Source of the DNA: a virus
Virus genome (UHGV): UHGV-0264650
Strand: one strand, 5' to 3'
Length of the DNA: 15,105 nucleotides
The position numbers and the translations under genes are program-made. This document shows, piece by piece, positions 11,755 through 15,105 of this stretch. A model generated the notes under the pieces. It saw only the letters and a program-made list of their open reading frames with translations, had not been told where the DNA came from and made no database searches. The stretch's first letter is position 1, and every line of letters begins with the position of its first letter.

Positions 11755-12240
11755 TCACACCTCATCTTCAACTTCCTGGACGATGCGGGCGATCTCTTCT
11801 TTCGTTACTTCAACCCGGACGGGTGCTTCCTCCCTGTTGCCGACGATCTCCTGTGTGACGCGTTCACCATATTTACGCGGTTGCAGTTTTGCCAGTAACC
11901 ACTTGCGCGTTTCAATCATCAGTTGATGGCGGCGGCATTCATCTTTATCAATGTTCTCCGCTGCATCGGCTATATCTATGATTTCATCAGCCAATACCTC
12001 AAACCCTATTTCCTTCGCGCGTATGTACATGTCCGAAAACTCCGGAACATCTCTGAACCATTTAAGGATTGTCGAACGCGTTGGCATACCTGGCATCTTC
12101 GAGATCTTATTAATACTCTTACCGTCCGCCACCAGCTCACAGATCTCTAATGCCTTTTCTTCGGTATAACCATGCGGACGGCCCACCCTTTTTGCGGCTG
12201 GCTTTTTATCGTCAGCCTTCGCCTTTTTCGTGCGGGCCAT
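11755..12240 (-). CDS. terS: Putative terminase small subunit
   Basis: 161-aa ORF directly upstream of and translationally coupled to TerL. Basic N-terminus (MARTKKAKADDKKPAAKRVGRP) followed by a helix-turn-helix-like segment, acidic C-terminus. SD GAGGTG 4 nt upstream of ATG 12240. Confidence 0.7.
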   Translation of the reverse strand: MARTKKAKADDKKPAAKRVGRPHGYTEEKALEICELVADGKSINKISKMPGMPTRSTILKWFRDVPEFSDMYIRAKEIGFEVLADEIIDIADAAENIDKDECRRHQLMIETRKWLLAKLQPRKYGERVTQEIVGNREEAPVRVEVTKEEIARIVQEVEDEV

Positions 12241-12250
12241 AATTCACCTC

Positions 12251-12496
12251 TTAATTATCTTTTTCAAATCTTAATTTAAATTCATTCATCATCTTTTCTA
12301 CTTCCTGTTCGGAAAGATAGATGGTTTCATTATTTTCTGCTGAATCAAGTGCCTTTCTTATTTCATCTGCTATTTTTAGCTCCTCATCGTTCACAACGTC
12401 ACCTTTTAATATTTGTTGATGATATATACGCAAGCCACAAAACTTGCGCAGTATGTTAATACTTCCAACCAGTCGAATAGCTCTTTCACTGTTCAC
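12251..12496 (-). CDS. AT-rich hypothetical protein (81 aa from GTG 12496, or 47 aa from GTG 12394)
   Basis: Open frame ends 10 nt before the TerS start. The first in-frame start (GTG 12496) has GAAGG only about 1 nt upstream; the internal GTG at 12394 has AGGTGA 4 nt upstream. Acidic product (..DEELKIADEIRKALDSAENNETIYLSEQEVEKMMNEFKLRFEKDN). Noticeably AT-richer than the neighbouring terminase genes. Confidence 0.4.
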   Translation of the reverse strand: MNSERAIRLVGSINILRKFCGLRIYHQQILKGDVVNDEELKIADEIRKALDSAENNETIYLSEQEVEKMMNEFKLRFEKDN

Positions 12497-12499
12497 CCT

Positions 12500-12571
12500 T
12501 CACATAATCGAAAGCGCCCATGTAATAAGGACGATAGCCAAAACCATATAGATAAAATCTGACTCTCTCAT
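12500..12571 (-). CDS. Mini-ORF 9 of array: 23-aa hydrophobic peptide MRESDFIYMVLAIVLITWALSIM
   Basis: ATG 12571 with strong SD AAGGTGG 5 nt upstream; the SD overlaps the stop of mini-ORF 8. One predicted transmembrane helix. Confidence 0.4.
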   Translation of the reverse strand: MRESDFIYMVLAIVLITWALSIM

Positions 12572-12585
12572 ATTGTCCACCTTAC

Positions 12586-12654
12586 TTACGCAAAGAAAAT
12601 GATAACAGTTAACAGCGAACTTATAGCCATGATTAAGAAATCGCGGTCAGACAT
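12586..12654 (-). CDS. Mini-ORF 8 of array: 22-aa hydrophobic peptide MSDRDFLIMAISSLLTVIIFFA
   Basis: ATG 12654 overlaps the 3' end of mini-ORF 7 (out of frame); only a weak GGGG about 10 nt upstream. Hydrophobic C-terminal half. Confidence 0.25.
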   Translation of the reverse strand: MSDRDFLIMAISSLLTVIIFFA

Positions 12655-12721
12655 TGATAATAAACCCCACAATAACAACCGCTGCGATACATACGAATAA
12701 TACAGCTTCGATAGTTTCCAT
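12647..12721 (-). CDS. Mini-ORF 7 of array: 24-aa hydrophobic peptide METIEAVLFVCIAAVVIVGFIINV
   Basis: ATG 12721 with SD AGGTGA 4 nt upstream, overlapping the TAG stop of mini-ORF 6 (TAGGTGA-N4-ATGGA). Resembles mini-ORF 4 at the N-terminus (M-D/E-x-x-E ... C at position 11). Confidence 0.4.
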   Translation of the reverse strand: METIEAVLFVCIAAVVIVGFIINV

Positions 12722-12729
12722 ATATTCAC

Positions 12730-12798
12730 CTATTGAGTCAGCGCGGTCATGGTAAGAACAATCGCAACGATCAGGAAAAAGAAATCAAGCCATTTCAT
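12730..12798 (-). CDS. Mini-ORF 6 of array: 22-aa hydrophobic peptide MKWLDFFFLIVAIVLTMTALTQ
   Basis: ATG 12798 overlaps the TGA stop of mini-ORF 5 (ATGA); SD GGGAG 8 nt upstream. Confidence 0.35.
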   Translation of the reverse strand: MKWLDFFFLIVAIVLTMTALTQ

Positions 12799-12860
12799 TT
12801 TTTAAACTCCCGATAAACATCTACGGCAATGACTACAACTACAGCCACCAGCAATAGCAT
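12795..12860 (-). CDS. Mini-ORF 5 of array: 21-aa hydrophobic peptide MLLLVAVVVVIAVDVYREFKK
   Basis: ATG 12860 lies 1 nt after the stop of mini-ORF 4 (TGA-G-ATG); weak SD, so expression would depend on coupling. Confidence 0.25.
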   Translation of the reverse strand: MLLLVAVVVVIAVDVYREFKK

Positions 12861-12861
12861 C

Positions 12862-12969
12862 TCATATGCGTTCATTGACACTACCTATAACCAGACCAAT
12901 GATGATAATTACGGCTACTACGCCCAACATCATTCCGCACATAATAGCCAGTAGTTCGAATATATCCAT
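12862..12969 (-). CDS. Mini-ORF 4 of array: 35-aa hydrophobic peptide MDIFELLAIMCGMMLGVVAVIIIIGLVIGSVNERI
   Basis: ATG 12969 with SD AGGTGA 4 nt upstream, overlapping the TAG stop of mini-ORF 3. This is the C-terminal part of ORF-track ORF 12862-13074, whose N-terminal half is a read-through of intergenic and other-frame sequence. Confidence 0.4.
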   Translation of the reverse strand: MDIFELLAIMCGMMLGVVAVIIIIGLVIGSVNERI

Positions 12970-12977
12970 GCAGTCAC

Positions 12978-13052
12978 CTATACAACATTTTTCCACCAGA
13001 AATAGATAATGACGGCGACCAACGACCACCAGATAGGACCGTAAATATTCAT
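12978..13052 (-). CDS. Mini-ORF 3 of array: 24-aa hydrophobic peptide MNIYGPIWWSLVAVIIYFWWKNVV
   Basis: ATG 13052 with GAAGG 8 nt upstream; Trp-rich single hydrophobic segment. Confidence 0.3.
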   Translation of the reverse strand: MNIYGPIWWSLVAVIIYFWWKNVV

Positions 13053-13130
13053 GGTGAATACCTTCAGCTTTCAATGAATATCATGATCGCCAGCCATACA
13101 GCGACGCATAAAGAAAGGATAACGAGCGGG

Positions 13131-13247
13131 TCAATCATCTCGCCCCTCCAACCAGTGCTTGATCTTTGCGTTTATTAGTGCAACTGCAATAAAACCCACC
13201 AGATATACAGAAATGCCGATCAATCCGGCAATGATATAATCATCCAT
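13131..13247 (-). CDS. Mini-ORF 2 of array: 38-aa membrane peptide MDDYIIAGLIGISVYLVGFIAVALINAKIKHWLEGRDD
   Basis: ATG 13247 with GGTGA 8 nt upstream (the SD lies in the last codons of mini-ORF 1). One hydrophobic helix followed by a charged C-terminal tail. Confidence 0.35.
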   Translation of the reverse strand: MDDYIIAGLIGISVYLVGFIAVALINAKIKHWLEGRDD

Positions 13248-13251
13248 AACA

Positions 13252-13320
13252 TTATTCACCGACCAGTAATATTACAGCGGCAGCCATTCCGATAAATAAA
13301 CCTGACAGAAAAGTAAGCAT
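13252..13320 (-). CDS. Mini-ORF 1 of array: 22-aa hydrophobic peptide MLTFLSGLFIGMAAAVILLVGE
   Basis: ATG 13320 lies 2 nt after the TGA stop of the 185-aa gene, with GGGGGTGA immediately upstream (coupled start). Confidence 0.35.
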   Translation of the reverse strand: MLTFLSGLFIGMAAAVILLVGE

Positions 13321-13322
13321 AA

Positions 13323-13880
13323 TCACCCCCGTTTAAAGCTCATAACACGCGGTACAAGCGCTTCTTTTGCTTTCGGCTTACGTTTGCCTTTCTTAGCTGG
13401 TTTTTGCTTGTCTTTTGCCTCATTAGCAATATCCCTTGCCTCTTGTGCGCTAAGACGTTCGGTTACTTCTTCTGCCTGCATTGCTGCAACCTGTGCTTCG
13501 TTTGATTCATCCAGGATTGGGAAGAATGCGTCAAAGATGCGGCCTACCATGTAAGCGTAAGTCTCGTTCGCCGGATGAGTTGGATCAGTGGTCGCCACGA
13601 CGCCAACATCACTTAGAACGTGGAATGTAGTGTGGGCCGCTTCATATACCAGTGTTCCTAACTCATTGTCGAATACTGCGATCACATAGAAATTACCGCC
13701 TTTCTCACCAGTACAAGTAAGCGTTAATCCTCCTGCCAGTTCGAAATCAGGTTCGATTGGTATTCCGGCCCTTTCGCAAAATTCATAAAACATGTCGCGG
13801 GTCGGGCAGAAGAAAACTGTTGTATGCTCAAAGAGCGGAACTTTGAATTGAGGCAACTTAATGCCTTTAGCCTTAGCCAT
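13323..13880 (-). CDS. Hypothetical protein (185 aa) with a globular N-terminal region and a highly basic Lys-rich C-terminal tail
   Basis: ATG 13880 with GAGGA 8 nt upstream. C-terminus EAKDKQKPAKKGKRKPKAKEALVPRVMSFKRG. Lies between the lysis cassette and the mini-ORF array. I could not assign a family from the sequence alone. Confidence 0.55.
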   Translation of the reverse strand: MAKAKGIKLPQFKVPLFEHTTVFFCPTRDMFYEFCERAGIPIEPDFELAGGLTLTCTGEKGGNFYVIAVFDNELGTLVYEAAHTTFHVLSDVGVVATTDPTHPANETYAYMVGRIFDAFFPILDESNEAQVAAMQAEEVTERLSAQEARDIANEAKDKQKPAKKGKRKPKAKEALVPRVMSFKRG

Positions 13881-14158
13881 CAGAATATTCCTCTATCCTG
13901 AAAAATATAACCCCCGCAAAACTGGACACCGCAGGGAGTGAAAACAGCTATAAAACACTAAAACGGCGCTGCATAAGTACAGTTTTTAGAATTTTATAAA
14001 ACTGGAGAATGGTGCTTTCTTCTACCCAGGTAGCGCCGGACCTGTTAATGGGACTGTTGATCCGGTATTACGTGTTTTTGACTTTTCCGCCGTCGCTCGC
14101 GGGAAGGATTGGCCCGGTTATGGCTGGCTGGCAGAAACGGCGACACGTCCACGCGCTG

Positions 14159-14629
14159 TTATTCTTTGCGTATGCACTGCGTCTTGATGTAGTCCTGCAA
14201 TCCGGTGATCTTCGCGTCTTTCTCTTTTAGTTGTTCTCTGAGGGATAGATAAGCCGATTCAGCGTCGGGAGTGAGTCTACAGGCGGCTCCATCAATGGCG
14301 CTGGCGGTTCCGGTGGGGTCGGACACTCGCACGGGCGTTGCGTTGACGCGCAACCGGATAGTACCGTTATCAATGCCAGTGCGCAGATCGGCAATGTCAG
14401 ATCTGATAGCTTTAATCTCATCGTGATACCTCTTATCAAGTTTTGACAGTTCGGCGTTTCGCTCCTTCATCTGCTGAATAGTGTTACTTGCCGTCTTCAG
14501 TGCGCCTTTCGTCACCGTGACTTGTTCCTGTAACCTTGCCGCCTCACCCTGGTAATAACACGTTACGGCGGTCAGCCCGGCAATAATGCAAACAACAACG
14601 GCGATGATTAACGTCTTCACCTTGTCCAT
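14159..14629 (-). CDS. Rz: Rz-like inner-membrane spanin (i-spanin)
   Basis: 156 aa, start overlapping the 3' end of the endolysin gene by 13 nt. N-terminal transmembrane segment ([17 protein letters not shown]) followed by a long charged, coiled-coil-like periplasmic domain. Position and the embedded Rz1-like ORF match the lambda Rz/Rz1 architecture. Confidence 0.8.
14227..14421 (-). CDS. Rz1: Rz1-like outer-membrane lipoprotein spanin (o-spanin), embedded in the +1 frame of Rz
   Basis: ORF-track ORF 14227-14439 starts at a TTG; the ATG at 14421 has AGAGGT 6 nt upstream. Product [26 protein letters not shown]... has a signal peptide with lipobox LSGC, then a Pro-rich mature region ([14 protein letters not shown]). 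Lies entirely within Rz. Confidence 0.75.
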   Translation of the reverse strand: MRLKLSDLTLPICALALITVLSGCASTQRPCECPTPPEPPAPLMEPPVDSLPTLNRLIYPSENN

Positions 14630-15105
14630 TTTTCACCCCATTCGCAAACGGCATATTCAACATCTCGGCGGTTTACCAGGCCTTGCCACTTCTTACCACC
14701 AGCGTATACCCAGCGTTTAAGCTGTGCGCACGCTTCCGATTTCTTGCCGTCATTAAGTAGCTTTAATAAGGTTGATGTTTTGAAGTTGGTTGCGCCTACG
14801 TTATAGGCGAATGAATAAAGTGCTGCGCGGGTAAAATCTGATATTTCGACTTTGATATATGGGTCAATCGCTTTTGCGGTCTTGTGTAGATCTTTATTTA
14901 ACAAAGCATCGCATTCTGATTGCGTGTAAGTCTTACCAAGCATGATGTCTTTTCCGACGTGTCCATAACATATCGTGTAAACACCGATGACATCTCTGTA
15001 TGGCTTATACTCAACGCCTTCAAGATCTTTTATCATCACCGCCGCAATAGCGATCGCCCCACCAGCCGACGCCGCAACAATCTTGTTTTTCAGCGATTGG
15101 CTAAT
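14617..15105 (-). CDS. SAR endolysin (T4-lysozyme-like muramidase with signal-arrest-release N-terminus); 5' end lies beyond the right edge of the window
   Basis: The frame is open from the window edge: ...[49 protein letters not shown]... A Gly/Ala-rich weakly hydrophobic segment (a SAR domain) precedes a catalytic E-8-D-5-T triad (E in DLEG, D in YRD, T in VYT). The in-window start codons (15039/15036) fall inside the SAR domain, so the real start is upstream of the window. Confidence 0.85.

Follow-up and report, generated by a model that had tools for sequence, protein, structure and literature searches.

Among the closest known systems is the lysis cassette of phage 21 (S21, R21, Rz21/Rz1-21), in which holin, endolysin, and Rz with its embedded Rz1 follow one another in the same order as in the locus described here. 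Its endolysin, R21 (PDB 3HDE, 3HDF), shares with the present endolysin a signal-anchor-release (SAR) segment, a GG motif, an E/D/T triad, and four cysteines in the body of the enzyme, and its spanins share their Pfam families with the Rz and Rz1 of our sequence. The lysozyme of the DLP12 prophage, RrrD (PDB 4ZPU), is a cognate of R21 and is also close to the present endolysin. The phage 21 holin, which comprises the S21-68 pinholin and the S21-71 antiholin, is a member of PF04971, whereas the holin of the mEpimmI group of coliphages belongs to PF16080. The latter family also includes the holin of the HP1 hol/lys system (PMC7312051), which has two predicted transmembrane domains (TMDs), a single start, and no antiholin. 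As in the mEpimmI group, the HP1 holin gene lies directly upstream of a lysozyme gene whose product depends on Sec and is anchored by its N-terminus. Cells are killed by HP1 Hol without being lysed and without leaking beta-galactosidase, and the partner of this holin is a Sec-dependent SAR lysozyme (PMC7312051). The two systems are nonetheless set apart by host and virion type, as HP1 is a P2-like myovirus of Haemophilus, and HP1 Hol has 78 amino acids (aa) in place of the 66 aa of the holin discussed here, with ≈25% identity between them in a multiple alignment.

Outside the mEpimmI group, the closest holin is that of the P22-like Salmonella phage SPN9CC (SPN9CC_0042-0044), at 47% identity in the multiple alignment and 49% by tblastn. 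The SPN9CC cassette continues with an R21-like lysozyme that carries a SAR-like segment, SVIAAISGGAIAIASVLI, and then with an Rz-like gene. Unlike the short linker of the present endolysin, however, the linker of the SPN9CC lysozyme is long and of the R21 type (TGPGGNDG), and the phage backbone is a different one. SAR endolysins are recognized by an N-terminal region in which two to three basic residues precede a weakly hydrophobic TMD (PMC9239132). The Mu endolysin gp22 (PMC9239132) is a SAR endolysin with N-terminal lysines, as is the case here; Mu has a releasin and no holin (PMC9239132), whereas the mEpimmI group does have a holin.

The window analyzed here is the whole stretch of 15,105 nucleotides presented from virus genome UHGV-0264650, and its lysis cassette is encoded entirely on the minus strand. 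On the right, the source contig ends where the window does; a 100% identical locus (L005) begins at contig base 1, and at 100% identity the window corresponds to the terminal part of a metagenome contig in ENA. This metagenomic contig belongs to the mEp021/mEpimmI group of coliphages, with mEp021, mEp010, MagusPhagus, and 35 E. coli prophages showing 88-94% identity to it. Its right end is a standard phage lysis module, in which a membrane-tethered, phage-21-like lysozyme is followed by nested Rz and Rz1. Because a small two-helix holin is encoded directly upstream in every related phage, we regard the cassette as a routine example of a lysis system that has been well studied. The Pfam E-values and the conservation in 13-17 related loci place its features far beyond chance. 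A search of the whole window against Rfam returned nothing at gathering thresholds, and the paper on the mEpimmI phages nowhere discusses a holin, an endolysin, or a SAR segment. Overall, we think it probable that a late cassette of four genes (holin, SAR endolysin, Rz, and embedded Rz1) from an mEp021/mEpimmI temperate coliphage is represented in the window by its distal three-quarters, and that this cassette would work like the pinholin/SAR-endolysin pathway of phage 21 and HP1.

The endolysin and its parts occupy the extreme right of the window:

14617..15105, minus strand: endolysin of the GH24 / T4-lysozyme family, R21-type SAR (from translation, PF00959, PDB matches, and an AF2 model)
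15082..15105, minus strand: N-terminal segment ISQSLKNK, residues 2-9, predicted to be cytoplasmic (K7 and K9 lie ahead of the SAR helix)
15031..15081, minus strand: SAR segment, residues 10-26 (from composition, R21 alignment, and the AF2 model)
14974..15021, minus strand: catalytic triad region, E-8-D-5-T (from alignment to R21)

The window retains 162 codons of the endolysin gene and its stop codon; the ATG alone is absent, lying 1-3 bases past base 15105. The full-length protein in relatives has 163 aa and the N-terminus MISQSL. The translation matches Pfam PF00959 (Phage_lysozyme) with E = 8.4e-44 and, in the PDB, RrrD (4zpu, E = 7.2e-63) and R21 (3hde, E = 8.5e-62). The alignment with R21 begins at residue 5 and thus takes in the SAR segment, and the catalytic body is 63% identical to that of R21. 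Within this T4-lysozyme-like domain, the Glu-8aa-Asp-5aa-Thr triad that the initial annotation had pointed out is formed by E30 (15019..15021), D39 (14992..14994), and T45 (14974..14976), which align with E35/D44/T50 of R21. Among 66 homologues, neither the Glu nor the Asp column shows any variation, and conservation in the Thr column is at least 90%. An AF2 model of the endolysin (pLDDT 90.8) superposes on full-length R21 (3hde) with a TM score of 0.95 and an rmsd of 0.9-1.2 A over 164-165 columns, as against a TM score of 0.64 on the SAR-less, truncated R21 (3hdf).

The SAR segment itself, I10-I26, consists of 17 uncharged residues, 59% of which are Gly, Ala, Ser, or Thr, with a mean Kyte-Doolittle value of 2.31 and with K7 and K9 preceding it; the 15-residue stretch quoted in the initial annotation corresponds to residues 10-24. 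A few basic residues and a Gly/Ala-rich TMD of weak hydrophobicity thus make up the whole N-terminus. Two to four basic residues likewise stand ahead of the SAR segment in most homologues (44 of the 56 in which the AIAIA core could be located). The segment aligns with the SAR of R21, AVAAAIGGGAIAIASVLI, and the N-terminal part of the model is a helix-GG-helix (H3-15, H17-28; pLDDT >90) that packs against the body in the manner of full-length R21. The predicted refolding of the SAR helix onto the body is therefore of the R21 kind and involves no regulatory Cys, unlike that of the P1 Lyz type; a Cys before the catalytic Glu occurs in 0 of 66 homologues. The linker from the SAR segment to the catalytic Glu is six residues shorter than that of R21. 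We considered this short linker as a possible novelty and rejected it, as it is the commoner form (33 versus 22 of 66 homologues).

On the strength of homology that includes the SAR segment and of a confident model that matches full-length R21, the protein is assigned as an R21-type SAR endolysin, as had originally been proposed. Sec export without signal-peptidase cleavage, pmf-dependent tethering, and release on depolarization are predicted by analogy. If the hydrophobic segment were instead an ordinary Sec signal peptide that is cleaved, the lysozyme would be constitutively periplasmic, with no SAR-tethered zymogen. Small residues (Ala-Ile-Ala, Ala-Ala-Val) do end the hydrophobic stretch, and release by signal peptidase has been proposed for some phage endolysins, such as KBNP1315 ORF51. 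Nevertheless, the stretch can be matched to the R21 SAR one residue at a time, and in the crystal structure of full-length R21 that SAR is still present. No polar c-region follows the stretch, the catalytic Glu being just 4 residues past its end. The model, moreover, packs both helices into the enzyme body at pLDDT >90, and constitutive release would bring about premature lysis and make the conserved holin pointless. We consider a cleaved signal peptide extremely improbable and retain the assignment as a SAR endolysin.

The start of the endolysin gene points in the same direction. A normal cytoplasmic N-terminus encoded upstream, which the initial annotation had named as the observation that would speak against a SAR domain, is not borne out in the relatives, every one of which has an ATG followed by ISQSL. 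The holin TAA stands in frame directly before this ATG in 10/15 relatives and rules out an N-terminal cytoplasmic extension in these. In the remaining 5/15, the open frame upstream of the ATG falls within the holin gene, and misannotations are all that it has yielded. Some public records carry an endolysin lengthened by ≈42 spurious residues, which come from out-of-frame reading through the holin gene.

The window contains no holin gene, its endolysin open reading frame running off the right end, and no exact 44-nt match to that end was found in viral, genome, or metagenome collections, so that the holin of this particular phage was not recovered. The initial annotation had placed the holin outside the window and had suggested that extending the sequence to the right would find and classify it. 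The placement was correct: in 13/13 relatives with upstream sequence, a 66-aa holin with two TMDs, at least 95% identical among them, abuts the endolysin ATG. The extension accordingly succeeded in the relatives, where the holin found is of class II and of the HP1 family, but not for the window's own gene. One apparent exception, mEp044, was examined as a phage without a holin and rejected, the gene being intact and the annotation wrong. The relatives' holin has uncharged stretches at residues 8-26 and 28-47 and a charged C-terminal tail, KSQENKRAQEEHDARMGNK, and it is thus a small class II protein with two TMDs and a charged tail, encoded beside a SAR endolysin. It has no dual-start motif and therefore no antiholin of the S21-71 type.

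Because holins are short membrane sequences, family assignment was made by profile matches instead of BLASTP, which in pairwise comparisons of the relatives' holin with HP1 Hol and with S21-68 gave no alignment. The relatives' holin scores 54.1 bits against PF16080, the HP1 holin family (cutoff 28.8), and matches the holin family phrog_20 with E = 3.7e-20. Against the P21 holin family, PF04971, it reaches 22.9 bits, below the cutoff of 26. The S21-68 sequence that served for comparison was validated by its score of 122 bits against PF04971. TMD1 of the relatives' holin is 53% G/A/S/T with a mean Kyte-Doolittle value of 1.41, and TMD1 of S21-68 is 55% G/A/S/T, a likeness of composition that is suggestive only. 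TMD2 carries Ser36, Thr40, and Asn44 at the spacing i, i+4, i+8. In pinholins of the S21-68 / HP1 Hol kind, TMD1 behaves as a SAR-like helix and exits the bilayer, TMD2 lines a small heptameric pore, and the lesions admit neither a cytoplasmic endolysin nor beta-galactosidase. NCBIfam offered no specific family for the holin, for Rz or Rz1, or for a 185-aa protein encoded beyond them.

PF16080 includes an experimentally characterized pinholin, HP1 Hol, and membership in this family, together with that one characterized member (25% identical in the multiple alignment), suggests that the relatives' holin is a pinholin. In SPN9CC, phi1026b, and F108, a holin of the PF16080 type adjoins a lysozyme that has a hydrophobic anchor at its N-terminus; in APSE-7, the lysozyme is soluble, and an extra lambda-type holin is present besides the PF16080-type one. 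The same cassette could also be read with a canonical large-hole class II holin in the upstream position, in which case the SAR endolysin would be released when that holin triggers. SAR endolysins do work with canonical holins, as P1 Lyz also does with LydA and LydC, and hole size is not something that the sequence reveals; the PF04971 score below cutoff and the lack of pairwise BLASTP similarity to S21-68 or HP1 Hol are compatible with this reading as well. Yet the relatives' holin is a clear member of PF16080, the founder of which behaves as a pinholin, and its TMD1 is weakly hydrophobic, with a G/A/S/T content similar to that of S21-68. Members of PF16080 also pair with membrane-anchored lysozymes, and APSE-7, the sole example with a soluble lysozyme, adds a lambda-type holin. 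A large-hole holin thus appears unlikely, and a pinholin is the reading that we favor. The expectation in the initial annotation that a SAR endolysin implies a pinholin agrees with the finding of a holin of the HP1 pinholin family, although the implication was overstated, as P1 and Mu differ.

Downstream of the endolysin, the cassette continues with the two spanin genes:

14159..14629, minus strand: Rz i-spanin, 156 aa (PF03245, E = 4.5e-26; phrog_13 Rz-like spanin, E = 9.1e-43)
14227..14421, minus strand: Rz1 o-spanin, 64-aa precursor (PF06085, E = 3.2e-8; phrog_3198, E = 2e-16)

Rz begins before the endolysin gene ends, and the two genes share 13 nt. In family, N-terminal TMD (residues 6-28; 14546..14614), and cysteines in the periplasmic part (Cys117 and Cys152), Rz is an i-spanin of the lambda Rz/Rz1 kind, and family membership suggests that its periplasmic region forms a coiled-coil. 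An identical Rz protein is encoded on 11 public contigs. The open frame of Rz1 extends over 14227..14439 on the minus strand and scores 33.6 bits against PF06085 (cutoff 27.9); its start is likely the ATG at 14421, which has AAGAGG ahead of it. Rz1 lies wholly inside Rz in the +1 frame, from 0.44 to 0.85 of the length of Rz. Embedded o-spanins typically start at ≈0.4-0.5 of this length, in the +1 frame as in lambda (PMC6139136). The nested, +1-frame Rz1 with the lipobox LSGC had been recognized in the initial annotation and is found where it was placed, on the minus strand. The lipobox lies at 14350..14361 and is followed by Ala at the +2 sorting position, and the mature protein is a short, proline-rich peptide of 41 aa with 11 Pro. 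Both the Rz1 reading frame and the LSGC motif are intact in 17/17 loci examined. The embedded Rz1 is unannotated in every public relative that we examined.

The cassette would then act as follows. Lys-Asn-Lys and the 17-residue Gly/Ala-rich helix would serve as an uncleaved signal anchor, and the Sec translocon would export the lysozyme domain, which would remain tethered to the inner membrane in an inactive state; both steps are modeled on the homology with R21. The 66-aa, two-TMD holin encoded upstream, a gene known here from the relatives, would accumulate, trigger, and depolarize the membrane, as its place in the HP1 holin family suggests. With the pmf lost, the SAR helix would exit the bilayer, refold on the catalytic body, and position Glu30; it is the refolding for which the model matches full-length R21. 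The refolded endolysin would degrade the murein. Once the murein is lost, the Rz i-spanin and the Rz1 outer-membrane lipoprotein, which together would span the periplasm, are expected from their families to disrupt the outer membrane. The mini-ORF array described below would be a separate accessory region next to the cassette.

Two features lie beyond Rz and bear on how far the lysis cassette reaches:

13901..13940, minus strand: terminator-like hairpin, CCCTGCGG...TGCGGGGG then TTATATTTTT (MFE and centroid folds)
12406..13326, minus strand: mini-ORF array of 10-11 translationally coupled ORFs of 22-42 aa, one TMD each (from ORFs and hydrophobicity)

The hairpin follows Rz and closes the lysis cassette, and the gene for the 185-aa protein comes next. 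Terminators are annotated in the corresponding spacer between Rz and the next gene in mEp021 (TERM_6) and mEp013 (T11). A scan of 12200..15105 for promoter and terminator consensus sequences gave counts no higher than those in shuffled sequences and missed the hairpin after Rz. Folding of the spacer as a whole gave z = -0.63, and there is thus no unusual structure in it beyond the terminator-like hairpin. The 185-aa protein has no sequence match in Pfam or the PDB; its sole match is phrog_1365, a family without assigned function.

In the mEpimmI phages, the mini-ORF array is located between the lysis cassette and terS. Across 13 loci, its peptides fall into 11 families that were tested for substitutions and one more that was seen by eye. 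Differences are distributed over the three codon positions as 585:398:1176, with pN/pS of 0.20 (13 loci), and families C, F, and G are present in 13/13 loci. The mini-ORFs are real, selected, membrane-directed genes, and the array is a more unusual feature than the lysis cassette itself. The small membrane peptides that the initial annotation had noticed in this adjacent region are therefore present, although they number 10-11 rather than nine. The peptides match nothing in Pfam or PHROGs at E = 0.001 or the family cutoff, and DUF2730 is absent even among the weak matches; PADLOC returned nothing for the mini-ORFs and their neighbors. In RefSeq, the selected array is left blank.

The sole established precedent for a role of such peptides in lysis is the Mu releasin gp25 (DUF2730; PMC9239132), a membrane protein encoded a few genes downstream of gp22 that controls gp22 release. 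The array could be part of the lysis program, with antiholin-like or releasin-like peptides that set pinholin triggering or SAR-helix release. The low pN/pS and the single TMD of each peptide, the presence of families C, F, and G throughout, the strand shared with the lysis and packaging genes, and the translational coupling to the gene downstream of the cassette all fit this idea. The peptides of 22-42 aa, however, resemble neither DUF2730 nor any other lysis family, and they are without a cytoplasmic domain such as the 73-aa one that forms most of Mu gp25. The terminator-like hairpin and the 185-aa gene stand between the array and the cassette, and HP1 and phage 21 do without such an array. 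The content of the array differs, moreover, between phages whose holin and SAR segment are near-invariant, a pattern more in keeping with an accessory hot-spot than with a tuned partner. We accordingly judge a part for the array in the lysis program to be distinctly unlikely. The proposal in the initial annotation that the mini-ORFs modulate membrane potential and SAR release finds no support, given the lack of lysis-family matches, the intervening hairpin and 185-aa gene, and the variable content. The more specific notion that the peptides are a new class of lysis-timing modulators, short helices placed in the membrane next to the pinholin or the SAR helix, where they would delay (antiholin-like) or promote (releasin-like) triggering, is very unlikely in our estimation.

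The lysis cassette by itself matters little, in that it adds the gut-prevalent mEpimmI coliphages to the probable users of a pinholin/SAR-endolysin system. Its combination of an R21-type lysozyme with a holin of the HP1 rather than the S21 family illustrates module mixing. Among nearby features, only the mini-ORF array may repay experiments; were its peptides to prove to be lysis-timing modulators, cassette shuffling would let related phages tune the time of lysis.

The lysis genes at the right end of the window lie, like every gene of the window, on the minus strand. The endolysin matches the Pfam Phage_lysozyme family (E = 8.4e-44), and its best matches among solved structures are the DLP12 lysozyme RrrD (4zpu, 7.2e-63) and R21, the signal-anchor-release (SAR) endolysin of phage 21 (3hde, 8.5e-62), to which it is 63% identical over the catalytic body. 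Because the structure alignment begins at residue 5, it covers the hydrophobic N-terminal segment. There, K7 and K9 (counting the missing Met as residue 1) precede the uncharged stretch I10-I26, an arrangement that fits the hallmark of SAR endolysins, basic residues followed by a weakly hydrophobic Gly/Ala-type stretch (PMC9239132). The catalytic triad E30, D39 and T45, with E-8-D-5-T spacing, aligns with E35, D44 and T50 of R21. The SAR segment and triad proposed in the initial annotation are therefore borne out by the R21 alignment, the composition and the flanking lysines.

Features of the lysis cassette and the neighboring region
12251..12496, minus: 81-aa ORF just upstream of terS
12406..12489, minus: 27-aa peptide VKELFDWLEVLTYCASFVACVYIINKY, GTG start, overlapping the 81-aa ORF in another frame
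12406..13326, minus: mini-ORF array, 10-11 tandem overlapping ORFs of 22-42 aa
13323..13880, minus: 185-aa protein, phrog_1365, with a Lys-rich tail
13901..13940, minus: terminator-like hairpin between cassette and array
14159..14629, minus: Rz (PF03245, 4.5e-26)
ATG 14421, stop 14227, minus: Rz1 (PF06085, 3.2e-8)
14617..15105, minus: endolysin, 162 residues plus stop in the window (translation)
15031..15081, minus: SAR segment I10-I26, 17 residues, 59% Gly/Ala/Ser/Thr

The window endolysin lacks only its ATG, since the protein of its relatives has 163 aa and begins MISQSL. A normal cytoplasmic N-terminus upstream, which the initial annotation had regarded as incompatible with a SAR domain, was not found among 15 relatives. 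In 10 of these, the holin TAA is in frame with and directly adjacent to the endolysin ATG, which excludes any N-terminal extension; the remaining five have one extra base (TAA-N-ATG), and the frame is open for 29-44 codons, only inside the holin gene. These data place the hydrophobic segment at the N-terminus, as a SAR domain requires. The open frame also explains two erroneous 205-aa endolysin annotations, the mEp044 "lysozyme R" and a TPA "endolysin R21 like protein"; the annotated proteins of mEp044 (L015 2669..3286) and P0001 carry ~42 spurious N-terminal residues, out-of-frame through the holin gene. The mEp044 holin is intact but was left unannotated.

The linker from the SAR segment to the catalytic Glu is six residues longer in R21 than in the window endolysin. 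Homologues at 60% identity or above number 66; 33 of them have the short linker and 22 the R21 form. An AlphaFold2 model built on an alignment of the homologues (pLDDT 90.8, pTM 0.87) has an N-terminal helix-GG-helix packed against the body, and it superposes on full-length R21 with a TM of 0.95 (rmsd 0.9-1.2 Å over 164-165 columns), versus 0.64 for the SAR-less truncated R21. Because of this superposition, the short form is predicted to be compatible with an R21-type refolded conformer. The disulphide-switch type of P1 Lyz is ruled out, as the SAR region is free of cysteine in all 66 homologues.

The holin had been placed outside the window, and a 66-aa ORF, MFDRIREACAYVTGAVTAFFGAITINDIAVFVGILSTVGTFAVNYYFKSQENKRAQEEHDARMGNK, indeed directly abuts the endolysin in all 13 relatives with upstream sequence. 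It varies by at most three substitutions among relatives. Two stretches of the protein are uncharged, the tail is charged, and there is just one start, no further start codon lying in frame upstream. The protein matches PF16080, the HP1 holin family (54.1 bits versus a cutoff of 28.8), and PF16082 just above that family's cutoff, and falls below the cutoff of PF04971, the P21 holin family (22.9 versus 26 bits). HP1 Hol, the founder of its family, kills cells without lysis or β-galactosidase leakage, has no dual start, and is partnered with a SAR lysozyme that depends on Sec; the authors who characterized it term it a pinholin (PMC7312051). It is only about 25% identical to the 66-aa holin, and BLASTP gave no pairwise alignment of the latter with HP1 Hol or S21-68. 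HP1-family holins also adjoin lysozymes with N-terminal hydrophobic anchors in SPN9CC (R21-like), phi1026b, and F108. These family data support a putative pinholin role for the 66-aa protein. As a general rule, the initial step from SAR endolysin to pinholin goes too far, P1 and Mu (PMC9239132) being exceptions; within this group it holds on family grounds.

The APSE-7 locus (L013 1498..2429) encodes, in this order, an HP1-family holin, a lambda-family holin and a soluble lysozyme that lacks an N-terminal anchor; this natural order is consistent with HP1-family holins being unable alone to release a cytoplasmic endolysin. A strong GC-rich terminator hairpin, CCCGGCCCCGCGCCGGG, with a T-run lies outside the window, ~20 nt upstream of the holin ribosome-binding site in relatives (about 5270..5300 in L003, 3493..3532 in L014 and 6422..6438 in L002). 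Its position is like that of a Q-antiterminated late terminator such as the one upstream of lambda S.

Exact-match searches of three collections with the right end of the window, for the phage's own holin, found nothing. Over its first bases, the ENA gut-metagenome contig ERZ28626709 scaffold_126 (47.8 kb) shows 100% identity to the window, so base 15105 is a physical contig end. Two public assemblies, this scaffold (L005) and Logan contig L006, break at that base (their base 1), just after the endolysin ATG; an assembly-graph branch from co-occurring relatives is a plausible cause. Across the group, nucleotide conservation is slightly higher in the holin gene than in the endolysin gene (mean 96.2% versus 94.3%). 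The phage belongs to the mEp021/mEpimmI group of Nus-dependent non-lambdoid temperate coliphages; mEp010, mEp021, and MagusPhagus are 88-92% identical to the window, and prophages up to 94% identical occur in 35 of 5426 complete E. coli genomes. The group's literature consists of one paper, which does not discuss holin, endolysin or spanins.

Rz1 lies entirely within Rz in the +1 frame (0.44-0.85 of Rz length), with an LSGC lipobox, Ala at +2 and a mature peptide of 41 residues, including 11 prolines. Coordinates and Pfam matches agree with the embedded Rz1 first proposed, and the geometry follows the typical embedded-spanin pattern (PMC6139136). Both ORFs are intact in 17/17 related loci. Rz1 is unannotated in every public relative examined, GenBank phage or RefSeq prophage (L001, L002, L009, L014-L020), and is intact with its LSGC lipobox in all of them. 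Gene calls on two Logan contigs, L006 and L008, include a plus-strand 73-aa ORF (14009..14230) antisense to the Rz 3' end; it is probably spurious.

The mini-ORF array, counted initially as nine ORFs, contains 10-11, which are translationally coupled and each encode a single-TMD peptide with a short, polar N-terminus. Substitution tests across 13 loci covered 11 peptide families, which vary in presence and absence; three of them are universal: C (MIDPL..), F (MNAYEM..), and G (MKWLDFFFL..). A twelfth family (MIMLTF...) was seen by eye. Differences by codon position are 585:398:1176 with a pN/pS of 0.20, and the ORFs are therefore genuine coding genes. A DNA-level search found the array in the mEp021/mEpimmI group alone; the region is blank in RefSeq prophage annotation.

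These peptides had been suggested to modulate membrane potential and thereby SAR endolysin release. Although Mu provides a precedent, the only established one, for a lysis role (PMC9239132), Pfam, PHROG, and PADLOC searches matched the peptides to no family, releasin included; the terminator-like hairpin and the 185-aa gene, which has no assigned function, separate the array from the cassette; and array content varies while holin and SAR are nearly constant. A lysis role is therefore not supported, and we consider it very improbable.

At the terS end of the array, VKELFDWLEVLTYCASFVACVYIINKY shows 56 synonymous and no non-synonymous differences (seven loci scored), and relatives lack an intact 81-aa ORF; the peptide, rather than the 81-aa ORF, is for these reasons probably the real gene. 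At the other end, the 185-aa protein has an HExxH-like motif, HE[ACV]AH[AT]TFH, in 12/12 relatives and no match in Pfam and PDB sequence searches. In the window the motif is YEAAHTTFH, Tyr (codon 79, 13644..13646) standing in place of the first His. This may be a small protein of metallopeptidase-like type whose window copy is possibly inactivated, or the replacement itself may be a sequencing variant.

With the gene structures, family memberships, and predicted refolded conformer established, the phage 21/HP1 pathway is the best-supported reading of the cassette. The lysozyme would be exported through Sec and stay tethered to the membrane, inactive; upon depolarization of the membrane by the upstream holin, the SAR helix would exit the membrane and refold, murein would be degraded, and Rz/Rz1 would disrupt the outer membrane. 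Here we infer hole size and timing as well as endolysin export and tethering. This core interpretation is supported by homology, by structure prediction and by the comparative context. Overall, the cassette is an ordinary member of a well-known lysis system, and its study yields useful by-products in the form of annotation corrections and a record of the mini-ORF array.
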